Below are positions 20,179 to 35,236 of a stretch of DNA of 64,000 bases, in pieces. The translations under genes were made by a program, and so were the position numbers. How positions within the stretch are numbered: the stretch's first letter is position 1; each line of letters starts with the position of its first letter. The notes beneath the pieces are model-generated. The model did not search any database, was not told where the DNA came from, and saw only the letters and a list, made by a program, of their open reading frames with translations. Source of the stretch: Escherichia coli (GTDB taxonomy: Bacteria; Pseudomonadota; Gammaproteobacteria; Enterobacterales; Enterobacteriaceae); assembly GCF_029227855.1 (NCBI RefSeq), contig NZ_CP074356.1. One strand, written 5' to 3'.

Positions 20179-20346
<168 letters not shown>

Positions 20347-20456
20347 TCATGAGACTATTCTAACCGCTAAGCACAGAAAAGCACTCCCCTTTTGTGCGGT
20401 CAGCTTTGCGTGGCGTTCGTTTTCCGTCACAATAAGACTTTTGCCAGGATATTGTT

Positions 20457-21245
20457 ATGCAGGCCGAAATCCTTCTCACCCTTAAGCTCCAACAAAAATT
20501 ATTCGCCGACCCGCGCCGCATTTCGCTACTAAAACACATTGCGCTTTCCGGTTCCATTAGCCAGGGAGCGAAAGATGCCGGTATCAGCTATAAAAGCGCC
20601 TGGGATGCCATTAACGAAATGAATCAGTTAAGTGAGCATATTCTGGTCGAGCGCGCAACAGGCGGTAAAGGTGGCGGCGGCGCAGTACTGACCCGCTATG
20701 GTCAGCGACTGATTCAGCTCTATGACTTACTGGCGCAAATCCAGCAAAAAGCCTTTGATGTGTTAAGTGACGATGACGCCCTGCCACTGAACAGCCTGCT
20801 GGCCGCGATCTCACGTTTTTCACTGCAAACCAGCGCCCGTAACCAGTGGTTCGGTACCATCACCGCCCGCGATCATGATGACGTTCAACAGCATGTTGAT
20901 GTCTTACTGGCTGATGGAAAAACACGCCTGAAAGTCGCAATTACCGCACAAAGCGGCGCGCGTCTGGGGCTGGATGAAGGCAAAGAAGTGTTGATATTGC
21001 TAAAAGCGCCGTGGGTAGGCATTACTCAGGACGAAGCTGTCGCACAAAACGCCGACAACCAATTACCGGGTATTATTAGTCATATTGAGCGCGGCGCAGA
21101 GCAGTGCGAAGTATTAATGGCGCTACCCGACGGGCAAACACTGTGCGCCACAGTGCCGGTAAATGAAGCGACTTCTCTTCAGCAAGGACAGAATGTCACG
21201 GCCTACTTTAATGCCGACAGCGTGATTATCGCCACGCTGTGCTAA
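20457..21245 (+). CDS. modE: Molybdate-responsive transcriptional regulator ModE
   Basis: 262 aa ORF MQAEILLTLKLQQKLFADPRRISLLKHIALSGSISQGAKDAGISYKSAWDAINEMN... matches ModE. Confidence 0.95.
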   Translation: MQAEILLTLKLQQKLFADPRRISLLKHIALSGSISQGAKDAGISYKSAWDAINEMNQLSEHILVERATGGKGGGGAVLTRYGQRLIQLYDLLAQIQQKAFDVLSDDDALPLNSLLAAISRFSLQTSARNQWFGTITARDHDDVQQHVDVLLADGKTRLKVAITAQSGARLGLDEGKEVLILLKAPWVGITQDEAVAQNADNQLPGIISHIERGAEQCEVLMALPDGQTLCATVPVNEATSLQQGQNVTAYFNADSVIIATLC

Positions 21246-33737: not shown

Positions 33738-34169
33738 CTTACCATCTCGTTTTACAGGCTTAACGTTAAAACCGACATGAGCGTAATATTCGCTGTTATC
33801 GGTGTAATTTGTTTTATATGCTAAACAAGATAGTCGAATGGTGGGGAAAAGTCACTCGAATTACGTATGAGATGCCGAATGCCACACTTTGCGTCTTATT
33901 TCTCCGACGTAAAGTTGTTTACGCAGCAAACGCGGAGTATGTCATCTGGGTTAAGAATTGAAATTGAGAGATGCCTGAATAGCAAAAAAGCGCCTTTAGG
34001 GCGCTTTTTTACATTGGTGGGTCGTGCAGGATGACTCGCTTCGCTCGCCCTACGGGCCGTCGCCGCGAGCGGCTCCGTTATTTCGCTGCGCTCAACTCGA
34101 ACCTGCTGCAGGTTCGAATCTTTGAGTATCGCAGATAGTAAAAAAGCGCCTTTAGGGCGCTTTTTTACA

Positions 34170-34245
34170 TTGGTGGGTCGTGCAGGATTCGAACCTGCGA
34201 CCAATTGATTAAAAGTCAACTGCTCTACCAACTGAGCTAACGACC
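34170..34245 (-). tRNA. lysQ: tRNA-Lys (anticodon UUU)
   Basis: Reverse complement is GGGTCGTTAGCTCAGTTGGTAGAGCAGTTGACTTTTAATCAATTGGTCGCAGGTTCGAATCCTGCACGACCCACCA; gene name by position in the K-12 order. Confidence 0.93.
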
Positions 34246-34278
34246 CCTTGCGGGATTATGCTGCTTTAATCATTCAGG

Positions 34279-34354
34279 ATGGTGGGTCGTGCAGGATTCG
34301 AACCTGCGACCAATTGATTAAAAGTCAACTGCTCTACCAACTGAGCTAACGACC
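34279..34354 (-). tRNA. lysZ: tRNA-Lys (UUU)
   Basis: Identical 76-nt tRNA-Lys sequence on the minus strand. Confidence 0.93.
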
Positions 34355-34500
34355 CATACGGGTGTTACCTGAAAGATTTCTACTCGGAACCAATCTTTAA
34401 AATTGGTGGGTCGTGCAGGATGACTCGCTTCGCTCGCCCTACGGGCCGTTGCTGGCGCAACGTTATCCTTCACGCTTAACATCTGAGTTTGATGTTAAAA

Positions 34501-34576
34501 TTGGTGGGTCGTGCAGGATTCGAACCTGCGACCAATTGATTAAAAGTCAACTGCTCTACCAACTGAGCTAACGACC
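34501..34576 (-). tRNA. lysY: tRNA-Lys (UUU)
   Basis: Identical 76-nt tRNA-Lys sequence on the minus strand. Confidence 0.93.
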
Positions 34577-34579
34577 CGA

Positions 34580-34655
34580 GTGGTGGGTGATGACGGGATC
34601 GAACCGCCGACCCCCTCCTTGTAAGGGAGGTGCTCTCCCAGCTGAGCTAATCACC
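34580..34655 (-). tRNA. valZ: tRNA-Val (anticodon UAC)
   Basis: Reverse complement is GGGTGATTAGCTCAGCTGGGAGAGCACCTCCCTTACAAGGAGGGGGTCGGCGGTTCGATCCCGTCATCACCCACCA. Confidence 0.93.
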
Positions 34656-34706
34656 CGATACTGCGCTGGATACTACAAACTACTTCCACCGAACCCACCG
34701 TAATTA

Positions 34707-34782
34707 GTGGTGGGTCGTGCAGGATTCGAACCTGCGACCAATTGATTAAAAGTCAACTGCTCTACCAACTGAGCTAACGACC
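34707..34782 (-). tRNA. lysW: tRNA-Lys (UUU)
   Basis: Identical 76-nt tRNA-Lys sequence on the minus strand. Confidence 0.93.
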
Positions 34783-34784
34783 CG

Positions 34785-34860
34785 GTGGTGGGTGATGACG
34801 GGATCGAACCGCCGACCCCCTCCTTGTAAGGGAGGTGCTCTCCCAGCTGAGCTAATCACC
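34785..34860 (-). tRNA. valT: tRNA-Val (UAC)
   Basis: Identical 76-nt tRNA-Val sequence on the minus strand. Confidence 0.93.
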
Positions 34861-34995
34861 CGATACTACGCTGGATACTACAACTAACTAGGTTAGTGGT
34901 GGGTCGTGCAGGATGACTCGACTTCGTCTCGCCCTTCGGGCCGTTGCTGACGCAACGTTATCCTTCACGTTTTACTACCGCTTCCACCTTAGCGA

Positions 34996-35071
34996 TTGGT
35001 GGGTCGTGCAGGATTCGAACCTGCGACCAATTGATTAAAAGTCAACTGCTCTACCAACTGAGCTAACGACC
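34996..35071 (-). tRNA. lysT: tRNA-Lys (UUU), first gene of the operon
   Basis: Identical 76-nt tRNA-Lys sequence on the minus strand. Confidence 0.93.
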
Positions 35072-35236
35072 CACTTTTTCGTTGCTTTCGGTTTGTTTGA
35101 TATCCCGTGGCAACGGCGGCATATATTACTGATTTCAGACTTGAGCGCAACAAAAATTTCGATGTAGATCACTCAACTGCTTATGATTCGCACGACACGA
35201 CCAGAAATAATGCGACTTCTGGTCGTGTGTTATGCA

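Follow-up and report, generated by a model that had tools for sequence, protein, structure and literature searches.

The three tRNA-Lys 3' fragments found at the lysT tRNA operon in the 64-kb stretch of Escherichia coli DNA analysed here (the window) are, with a probability that we put at roughly 85%, Lys-type copies of the RtT repeat (Rfam RF00391), which undergo precise deletion or tandem amplification by recombination between direct repeats and are dispensable in the operon. Their identity as RtT is already known: the family is curated in Rfam, annotated by PGAP and also present in the reference operon of K-12, and the preliminary description of this DNA missed that the feature belongs to a described and annotated family. 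The importance of the finding for the window is small, since this is a described, curated repeat that K-12 also has. Annotation pipelines report the full-length terminal copy only; the internal short forms go unlabelled, and seem novel to the naive reader, because they overlap tRNA genes or fall just under the threshold.

Copied tRNA-Lys ends and RtT elements in the lysT operon

The tRNA array lies on the minus strand (34171..35072) and was assigned by ARAGORN, by matches to the Rfam tRNA model and by synteny with cpoB and nadA. Both programs returned the seven intact genes that had been noted earlier, namely five identical tRNA-Lys(UUU) and two tRNA-Val(UAC). The 17-mer TGGTGGGTCGTGCAGGA has eight exact matches in the window against none expected by chance. 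Five of them are the 3' ends of the tRNA-Lys genes (34171, 34280, 34502, 34708 and 34997), which are the source of the sequence, and the remaining three are extra copies outside tRNA genes at 34015, 34404 and 34897, where the preliminary description had placed them at 34014, 34404 and 34893. The shared block itself was correctly recognised, but it is 18 nt long rather than 17; on the transcribed minus strand it reads ATCCTGCACGACCCACCA, and it is exact in all three modules.

Each fragment is joined to one and the same GC-rich hairpin module, as had been proposed. A 29-nt stretch of it, tgactcgcttcgctcgccctacgggccgt, is exact at 34032-34060 and 34421-34449, and in the third copy, from 34915 onwards, the stretch has diverged by more than three differences. 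The second common piece, gttgctg[g/a]cgcaacgttatccttcacg, was indeed found in copies two and three, and its palindrome corresponds to a hairpin, CGTTGC-loop-GCAACG. On the transcribed strand the modules end in ...ACCA, so that the tRNA-like 3' end predicted for them is there. They follow lysT, lysY and, beyond its terminator, lysQ, all on the same strand as the tRNA genes.

The first of these, a short-form module (34897..34996, minus strand), accounts for the initial 100 nt of the lysT-valT spacer, which is 135 nt long. An outer stem (CGUGAAGGAU / AUCCUGCACG) is present, as are the hairpins CGUUGC-GUCA-GCAACG and GCCC-GAA-GGGC, and the module terminates in the 18-nt tRNA-Lys copy at 34897-34914. 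The second short form (34404..34501, minus strand) occupies the initial 98 nt of the lysY-lysZ spacer, which is 146 nt long; it has a small AU-rich hairpin (UUAACAUC...GAUGUUAA) in front of it and terminates in the copy at 34404-34421. The third is a full-length element (34015..34140, minus strand) in which a T-arm palindrome (GAUUCGAACCUGC A GCAGGUUCGA) comes first, then the GC-rich core, and last the tRNA-Lys copy at 34015-34032.

Two identical terminators flank this last element. The first, read from the sequence (AUGUAAAAAAGCGCCCUAAAGGCGCUUUUUU; 34140..34170, minus strand), directly follows lysQ, and the second (33984..34014, minus strand) directly follows the pseudo-CCA of the terminal RtT. 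The earlier placement of the modules within the lysT operon is therefore right for the two that lie inside the operon transcript, but the 34015 copy is downstream of the first terminator. A simple terminator scan missed the terminator at 34140..34170, in our reading because A/T flanks lengthen its stem and consume the T run, and the plus-strand 'terminators' that it returned were core hairpins read on the wrong strand. The promoter/terminator scan found no promoter-like sites in the spacers. According to PMC4176162, the lysT and valU operons share an identical terminator, and the full-length transcript is picked up by a probe directed against it.

Scoring against RF00391, which has a curated gathering score of 45 bits, gave 60.6 bits for 34897..34996, 54.4 bits for 34404..34501 and 48.4 bits for 34015..34140 in their genomic context, all at least at the threshold, and the match at 34015..34140 spans the full model (positions 1-130). 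When the internal spacers were scored without the upstream tRNA, 34897..34996 and 34404..34501 gave 5'-truncated matches of 42.3 and 42.9 bits (E ~1e-7), just below 45. By the curated cut-off the internal copies are short-form relatives, and only the terminal copy is a full-length member by itself. In the 100%-identical record NZ_AP045174.1 the 34015-34140 stretch carries the PGAP label 'RtT sRNA'.

Comparison with K-12, which the preliminary description had proposed, showed such modules there too: there are five RtT matches in the K-12 lysT operon, of which the window lacks two, and four in tyrT at 133-137 bits. The two missing modules correspond to empty sites in the window. The lysW-valZ spacer (34657..34707, minus strand) measures 51 nt, which is the 149-nt K-12 spacer minus exactly a 98-nt RtT unit, and the lysZ-lysQ spacer (34247..34279, minus strand) measures 33 nt, which is the 132-nt K-12 spacer minus exactly a 99-nt unit.

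RtT was first described in the E. coli tyrT operon (Bosl and Kersten 1991, as cited in PMC4986893). The Lys units share with rtT RNA/rttR of the tyrT-tyrV operon the core ..CGUUGC-loop-GCAACG-RCCC-GNA-GGGY-GA..-CGAGU, a position directly after a tRNA gene on the same strand, an ending copied from the cognate tRNA (its last 18-19 nt, with the CCA), and a 5' arm complementary to that ending. They differ in that the cognate tRNA is Lys in the window and Tyr in tyrT, that neither the T-arm palindrome nor the model's first hairpin is present in the internal Lys copies, and that the Lys units are scattered between genes whereas those of tyrT form 178-bp tandem repeats. In addition, no tpr-like ORF is annotated in the Lys units, and their RNA product is only putative.

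Structure of the core and its distribution across tRNA genes

The predicted fold of the internal modules consists of the outer stem and two core hairpins in the minimum-energy or the centroid structure, and the terminal copy has a stable predicted fold without the outer stem. The fold z-scores were -2.5 for 34897..34996, -3.6 for 34404..34501 and -3.1 for 34015..34140. The tRNA-like fold for which the preliminary description had proposed looking did not emerge, since the modules fold as bundles of hairpins with no cloverleaf, and neither ARAGORN nor the Rfam tRNA model reports a gene beyond the seven intact ones. The tRNA-derived part of the modules is confined to tRNA positions 59-76, with 49-58 also present in the terminal copy. 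Each unit consists of a GC-rich core with several hairpins, after which the final 18 nt of the neighbouring tRNA are repeated exactly, from T-loop A59 to CCA. The stretch just 5' of the core is complementary to the copied T-stem and acceptor 3' strand, and the unit is therefore predicted to fold into a long stem, closed at its base, that leaves a short single-stranded ...CCCACCA tail.

In many Gammaproteobacteria the same core adjoins genes for tRNA-Lys, Tyr, Arg and Pro, and the copy begins at T-loop position 59. Of the 85 core copies in other genomes that have an upstream tRNA (Lys, Tyr, Arg or Pro), 73 continue into an exact copy of the final 18-19 nt of this tRNA, and the junction is constant at GGTTCGA|ATCC in the four tRNA families. 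The copied end tracks species-specific differences in the tRNA, and the 5' arm co-varies with it. Two-sided changes were also seen in hairpin 2, for which CGTTGC/GCAACG was found 79 times, CGTCGC/GCGACG seven times, CGCTGC/GCAGCG three times and CGCCGC/GCGGCG once, and hairpin 3 has more than 25 different stems. A published structure of an RtT RNA includes a tandem GA motif in which covariation supports one base pair (PMC7657543). The core has no similarity to the interior of tRNA-Lys.

Presence and absence in E. coli, and the fate of the transcript

Direct comparison of eight E. coli lysT operons showed precise presence/absence polymorphism at each of the five sites, with the 18-bp repeat as the boundary, and between zero and five modules per operon. 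The operons were compared directly because BLAST coverage joins pieces across neighbouring tRNA genes; over 5,426 E. coli genomes the query was at least 80% covered in 4146 and 1996 genomes, figures that are upper bounds only. The 100-nt lysT-valT unit is absent in L127 and L128, where a 35-nt spacer remains, and the 98-nt lysY-lysZ unit is absent in L128, leaving a 48-nt spacer. At the distal site (34015..34140) the copy number in other E. coli strains is 0, 1 or 2, and the variable unit is 156 nt long, comprising the terminator at 33984..34014 together with 34015-34139: L126, L127 and L128 have one terminator and no module, and L124 has three terminators and two modules. The L128 operon has no module at any site, and APEC E12053 (NZ_CP126928.1) is an example of a strain whose operon carries none. 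Point changes occur in the 18-nt block of some copies in L124, L125 and L126.

Module number therefore differs from one E. coli strain to another, and no module is essential in the lysT operon. Since the indels are precise, are bounded by the 18-bp repeat and leave between zero and five modules, we conclude that the operon can do without the modules and that recombination between the repeats deletes or amplifies them. The empty E. coli sites are most simply losses, because the matching spacers are filled in Citrobacter, Enterobacter, Pluralibacter and Phytobacter. An 18-bp direct repeat, extended to 49 bp by the terminator at the distal site, makes each unit prone to precise deletion or tandem amplification, and the end points suggest slippage or unequal recombination as the likely routes of loss and gain. 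The lysT operon is a hot spot of precise length polymorphism, which can confuse assembly, typing and comparisons of tRNA operons. At the same time, strains that lack individual modules or all of them form a natural deletion series for asking whether RtT RNAs act.

In K-12 the lysT operon is described as one polycistronic transcript that is processed by RNase P and RNase E (PMC4176162). The internal units 34404-34501 and 34897-34996 lie within this single precursor of more than 1100 nt, and must be removed during its maturation, in which RNase P cleaves at the 5' end of the following tRNA and RNase E within the spacers. By analogy with rttR of the tyrT operon, the annotated 3' end of which falls exactly at the pseudo-CCA, the by-product is likely to be a ~100-nt spacer RNA with a CCA end. 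The third unit, 34015-34140, lies between the two identical terminators and can be transcribed by read-through only. The suggestion in the preliminary description that the spacers might yield processed RNAs agrees with the literature on the founding rtT RNA, and a function of the Lys copies, as of RtT in general, is putative. A Northern signal has been reported for a Lys-associated RtT in Actinobacillus pleuropneumoniae (PMC4986893). The K-12 bands seen with lysT spacer probes in PMC4176162 are described for RNase P-deficient strains, and the literature searched describes no stable ~100-nt RNA from the lysT spacers of K-12.

It is unlikely that the modules are functional small RNAs that are freed from the tRNA precursor and act in trans, either by modulating the stringent response, as proposed for rtT, or by serving as sponges or decoys, a role demonstrated for the leuZ 3' external spacer. 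The rtT RNA is described as released from the tyrT transcript and has been implicated in the response to amino-acid limitation (Bosl and Kersten 1991, as cited in PMC4986893), stress reportedly up-regulates rttR (bioRxiv 10.1101/2024.07.17.603846), and in Klebsiella RtT RNAs have been listed among the differentially expressed RNAs (PMC4147364). The conserved hairpin structure and the tRNA-like ...ACCA tail would fit such a role. However, the Klebsiella annotations are 166-170 nt long, close to the 167-169 nt of cmscan matches that include the tRNA-Lys gene, and because of this agreement the Klebsiella reads may derive from the tRNA. The RNase P-deficient background of the K-12 spacer bands (PMC4176162) also weakens the case, as do the polymorphism of all five sites in E. 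coli, with one operon having none of the modules, and the lack of any known target, partner protein or phenotype for Lys-type copies. The leuZ sponge (Lalaouna 2015, as cited in PMC8082180) resembles the Lys modules in being a spacer RNA excised from a tRNA precursor, but it is not an RtT element, and the Lys modules have no known sRNA complementarity or link to Hfq.

Cores at other loci and the origin of the modules

The RtT core is also present in the rrnB T1-T2 spacer, including that of K-12, where it is joined to a copy of the 5S rRNA 3' end. Here the core GAACGTTGCGAAGCAACGGCCCGGAGGG lies between the first and the second terminator and is followed by the 5S rRNA 3' copy AACTGCCAGGCATCAAAT, an arrangement equivalent to the layout of the 34015-34170 unit. 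It differs in having 5S rRNA as the host RNA, in scoring only 17 bits with the RtT model and in being covered by no Rfam family. At four Dickeya loci the core splits ERIC repeats, and in L008 and L034 a core is nested inside another unit.

It can tentatively be proposed, although we consider it improbable, that the core is an independent and promiscuous module of ~65-75 nt, with three to four co-varying hairpins, placed in the 3' arm of a long host hairpin. The hosts may then be the pseudo T arm of at least four tRNA families (between A58 and A59), the 5S rRNA 3' end and ERIC. If so, RtT elements, the T1-T2 spacer and long ERICs would form one family, either as a mobile element directed at the terminal helices of stable RNAs or as a modular RNA that borrows a host terminal helix for its processing and stabilisation. 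A core that joins tRNA, 5S rRNA and ERIC copies merits dedicated study if it is absent from the older repeat literature.

A related and equally doubtful proposal is that the modules were left behind as footprints, either by a small mobile or insertional element or by an integrase-type exchange that duplicates the tRNA 3' end like an att site. The structured core of ~65-75 nt would insert in the 3' arm of hairpin targets, that is the tRNA T loop, the 5S rRNA 3' region and ERIC. The constant GGTTCGA|ATCC junction in four tRNA families is consistent with this, as are the splitting of the 5S rRNA 3' copy in rrn operons and of ERIC repeats at the four Dickeya loci, and the nested cores of L008 and L034. 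The precise presence or absence with an 18-bp direct repeat resembles att duplication, with such repeats flanking the 98-100-nt units and precise empty sites at all five positions. Tyrosine integrases of a T-loop class that target tRNA genes leave direct repeats there. The Lys modules are like such sites in that the repeat is the tRNA 3' end from the T loop, with an intact gene upstream and a displaced 3' fragment downstream, and in having precise empty sites; they are unlike them in that the RtT unit is only ~100 nt long and has no integrase, that its copies appear old, and that the core occurs at four tRNA families, 5S rRNA and ERIC. No transposase or integrase is associated with the modules: the 98-156-nt units have no credible ORF, and the adjacent genes are cpoB and nadA. 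That several genera have orthologous modules points to old residence, with the differences within E. coli read as losses, and no site was found to be filled in one strain yet empty in all outgroups. Ordinary unequal exchange accounts for the tandem amplification.

The preliminary description had also offered the modules as relics of recombination between tandem tRNA genes. This is correct in so far as the repeats drive precise indels, but the modules are not random scars, since the core is structured and is shared across Tyr, Arg and Pro tRNA genes in many genera. It is very improbable that they are inert products of unequal recombination or slippage between identical tRNA-Lys genes, with neither family identity nor selected structure: precise deletions and tandem amplification driven by the 18-bp repeats, point changes in the 18-nt block (L124, L125, L126) and the module-free L128 operon would be expected of such scars, but a core unlike the interior of tRNA-Lys, recurring in distant genera and next to tRNA genes for Tyr, Arg and Pro, with its junction at one T-loop position and its hairpins kept by compensatory changes, would not.

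The interpretation as Lys-type RtT copies was also set against other identities. A tRNA gene or pseudogene was rejected, there being no cloverleaf with acceptor, D, anticodon and T arms. Matches to other Rfam families (YrlA, at 44 bits against 69, Plastid-ycf2, AgrB and RNAI) are sub-threshold chance matches from tRNA or terminator sequence. REP/BIME, ERIC/IRU and BoxC elements are likewise short, GC-rich, hairpin-forming, multi-copy, co-transcribed and polymorphic among strains, but RtT is unrelated in sequence to BoxC and to ERIC itself and is tied to the 3' ends of stable-RNA genes. BoxC (CCCCTCACCCTAACCCTCTCCCC..GGGGCGAGGGGAC) was rejected because the sequences in the supplement of PMC2267715 are unrelated to the core, and the core does not occur in that stem-loop repeat catalogue, from which tRNA- and rRNA-linked clusters had been masked. 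An antisense 35-aa Arg-rich ORF (34031-34138, plus strand) and short TTG-start sense ORFs carry no evidence of being genes; the sense ORFs share RQQRPEGR-like residues with K-12 tpr only because both read through the same core.

RtT identity of the extra tRNA-Lys 3' ends

The seven tRNA genes of the lysT operon lie in the order Lys-Val-Lys-Val-Lys-Lys-Lys at 34171-35072 on the minus strand, and are flanked by cpoB and nadA in a 100%-identical E. coli record (NZ_AP045174.1). The preliminary description reported three additional, truncated tRNA-Lys 3' ends joined to a shared spacer module. An exact search with its 17-mer gave eight matches in the 64-kb window, where none is expected by chance; five fall in the tRNA-Lys genes and the three extra ones are at 34015, 34404 and 34897. 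The stretch in common with the tRNA is in fact 18 nt, ATCCTGCACGACCCACCA on the transcribed strand, and comprises the two final bases of the T loop, the 3' strands of the T and acceptor stems, and ACCA. Copies one (34015-34140) and two (34404-34501) carry the same 29-nt module without a difference, and copy three (34897-34996) has a diverged version of it; the further piece common to copies two and three, with its palindrome, is also present. The 17-mer count and these two shared pieces therefore confirm the observation.

All three copies, which are on the minus strand, match the Rfam RtT family, RF00391 (gathering score 45 bits), at 60.6 (34897), 54.4 (34404) and 48.4 bits (34015), and in the identical RefSeq genome PGAP labels the stretch equal to 34015-34140 'RtT sRNA'. 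The proposed comparison with K-12 revealed five RF00391 matches in its operon, after lysT, lysW, lysY, lysZ and lysQ, and the tyrT-tyrV type locus has four, at 133-137 bits. The lysT modules belong to a repeat that is already known and curated, and the reference strain has it too. When the internal copies are scored in context, the 5' third of the model falls on the T arm of the genuine upstream tRNA-Lys. The internal spacers alone give 5'-truncated matches of 42.3 (34897) and 42.9 bits (34404; E ~1e-7), below the gathering score, indicating that the internal copies are short forms. The sole full-length RtT among the three is the copy after the terminator (34015-34140).

Each internal unit, of 98-100 nt, consists of a variable leader of 26-29 nt, CGUGAAGGAU, a hairpin CGUUGC-NNNN-GCAACG, a second hairpin GCCC-GNA-GGGC, a tiny third hairpin, CGAGUC and finally the 18-nt tRNA copy. 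The predicted outer stem pairs CGUGAAGGAU with AUCCUGCACG with one mismatch, leaving ...CCCACCA single-stranded. The terminal unit has an additional palindrome formed by the 5' half of the T arm and its complement, and reads GCAGGUUCGA-[core]-AUCCUGC..., that is, the T arm of tRNA-Lys with the core between A58 and A59; the tyrT units follow the identical plan with tRNA-Tyr sequence in place of tRNA-Lys. The terminal RtT is flanked by two copies of an intrinsic terminator, AUGUAAAAAAGCGCCCUAAAGGCGCUUUUUU (33984-34014 and 34140-34170), neither being picked up by a simple terminator scan of the window.

Conservation of the element and its probable loss in E. coli

With one genome per species, an exact-pattern scan gave at least 120 loci. 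Among the matches listed, those adjoining stable RNAs are from Enterobacterales, Orbales (Gilliamella) and other Gammaproteobacteria; isolated matches in GC-rich genomes (Streptomyces, Mycobacterium) were judged to be chance. Where an upstream tRNA is present in the listed matches it is Lys, Tyr, Arg or Pro, and in 73/85 of these cases ..GAGU(A/C) comes after the core and leads into an exact copy of the final 18-19 nt of that tRNA, even where the tRNA sequence of the species differs. The arm 5' of the core co-varies with the tRNA copy (for tRNA-Arg, GCACCAGGGAGGAU with AUCCUCCCGGAUGC), and, again among the listed matches, compensatory changes on both sides of the stem are seen in hairpin 2, and hairpin 3 occurs with more than 25 different stems. 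On these comparative grounds, the tRNA-copy rule, the co-varying arm and the compensatory changes indicate that RtT is a structured, conserved family rather than the debris of tRNA-Lys genes.

Operons from the window, K-12 and six further complete E. coli genomes (n=8) were compared. The seven tRNA genes are constant, and each of five RtT sites occurs in a filled and a precisely empty form. Filled and empty spacers measure 135 and 35 nt for lysT-valT, 149 and 51 nt for lysW-valZ (empty in the window, 34657-34707), 146 and 48 nt for lysY-lysZ, and 132 and 33 nt for lysZ-lysQ (empty in the window, 34247-34279). The site after lysQ, when filled, holds one or two units of 156 nt, each a terminator plus RtT, and none when empty; other strains have 0, 1 or 2. 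The two empty spacers of the window equal their K-12 counterparts minus one RtT unit (98 and 99 nt, respectively), and throughout the comparison an empty form is the filled form minus one unit ending ...CCCACCA. Operons carry from 0 to 5 modules, with three in the window, five in K-12 and none in APEC E12053 (locus L128); the distal site of BEC1-S17-ESBL-09 (locus L124) holds a tandem pair.

Since Citrobacter, Enterobacter, Pluralibacter and Phytobacter have filled sites with matching trailing spacer sequences, the empty sites of E. coli would most simply be deletions between the 18-bp direct repeats. Unequal exchange between 49-bp repeats (18 nt plus terminator each) would account for the distal copy number. 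Thus, of the earlier interpretation as relics of recombination between tandem tRNA genes, recombination between repeats is supported by the precise indels, and an origin as tRNA gene remnants is displaced by the conserved structured family.

Transcription and processing of the modules

The K-12 lysT operon is a single transcript of >1100 nt, matured mainly by RNase P from the 3' end with the assistance of RNase E cuts in the long spacers, and the valU operon ends in an identical terminator (PMC4176162). Because the K-12 operon is one processed transcript, both internal modules are transcribed and have to be cut out; the terminal one lies beyond the operon terminator. At tyrT, the annotated rttR 3' end is exactly the CCA ending of the tRNA copy (pseudo-CCA) in the first RtT unit, and by analogy the Lys spacers would yield ~100-nt RNAs ending at the pseudo-CCA. 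The K-12 study describes spacer-probe bands for RNase P-deficient strains (PMC4176162), and in Actinobacillus Northern signals were obtained for RtT RNAs adjoining Lys and Asn tRNA genes (PMC4986893). A link between rtT and the stringent response appears as a proposal in the older literature. An essential role in the lysT operon is disfavoured, as the modules are freely lost in E. coli.

The core outside tRNA contexts, and neighbouring features

In many enterobacteria, among the matches listed, the core, here with an additional first hairpin, lies downstream of 5S rRNA genes (L013, L037, L068, L070, L071, L074, L089, L108, L109 and L116, from various Enterobacterales). It interrupts a copy of the 5S 3' end there (GAGAGUAGG / core / AACUGCCAGGCAUCAAAU), and a terminator, tRNA-Asp or tRNA-Thr comes next. 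Several of these copies have GGCAGTT and CTACTC 5' of the core, complementary to the split 5S end, a plan identical to that of RtT, in which a 5' arm is complementary to the split host-RNA end. Between T1 and T2 of K-12 rrnB (locus L130, 339-422), a core GAACGTTGCGAAGCAACGGCCCGGAGGG flanked by two further hairpins lies between GAGTAGG and a second 5S rRNA 3'-end copy, AACTGCCAGGCATCAAAT, with the T2 terminator next, a layout matching that of the terminal Lys RtT. No Rfam family covers this core, the RtT model scoring only 17 bits there. By BLAST the 78-nt rrnB stretch is matched in only 4316/5426 E. coli genomes; it may vary between strains.

Also among the listed matches, four Dickeya oryzae loci (L063:1318, L064:1034, L065:1887 and, on the minus strand, L066 7205) have the core inside ERIC repeats, between ..GGGTGAGCG and ACGCAGCCAACACACCTGCAACTTGAAGTATGACGGGTATA, and in two genomes (L008, ~100-206, and L034, ~70-177, both minus strand) a Lys-type RtT contains a further core unit nested in its 5' part, so that two serial cores precede one tRNA-Lys 3' copy. 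The 5S-linked, rrnB, ERIC-borne and nested copies suggest that the core is an independent module. Nor is it confined to the 3' side of stable-RNA genes, since in Brenneria roseae (L047, minus strand, 147) it immediately precedes the 5' end of a 5S rRNA gene (..CGAGAAATTTGCCTGGCGGC..). In Alishewanella, Arsukibacterium and Alkalimonas (L042, L059-L062, L110, L115), several near-identical cores per genome lie within longer GC-rich hairpin strings near contig ends, with no tRNA detected beside them.

An antisense 35-aa arginine-rich ORF runs through the terminal RtT (34031-34138, plus strand), and short TTG-start sense ORFs cross the internal units (34380-34460 and 34893-34955, minus strand); nothing supports any of them as genes. 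The sense ORFs share RQQRP(E/V)GR with the 'protamine-like' tpr product of K-12, a likeness that follows from their reading the identical core. A sub-threshold match to the Y RNA-like family YrlA (34195-34335, minus strand; 44 bits, gathering score 69) covers parts of lysZ and lysQ and is read as an effect of that model's tRNA-like part. The E. coli plasmid NZ_CP098226.1 (50,485 bp) carries tRNA-Val and tRNA-Lys genes with an adjoining partial RtT module at ~20289-20599. Upstream of the operon, the K-12 pal-cpoB junction (locus L002, 1-128) strongly matches the CpoB/ybgF RNA thermometer (RF02782, 119 bits).
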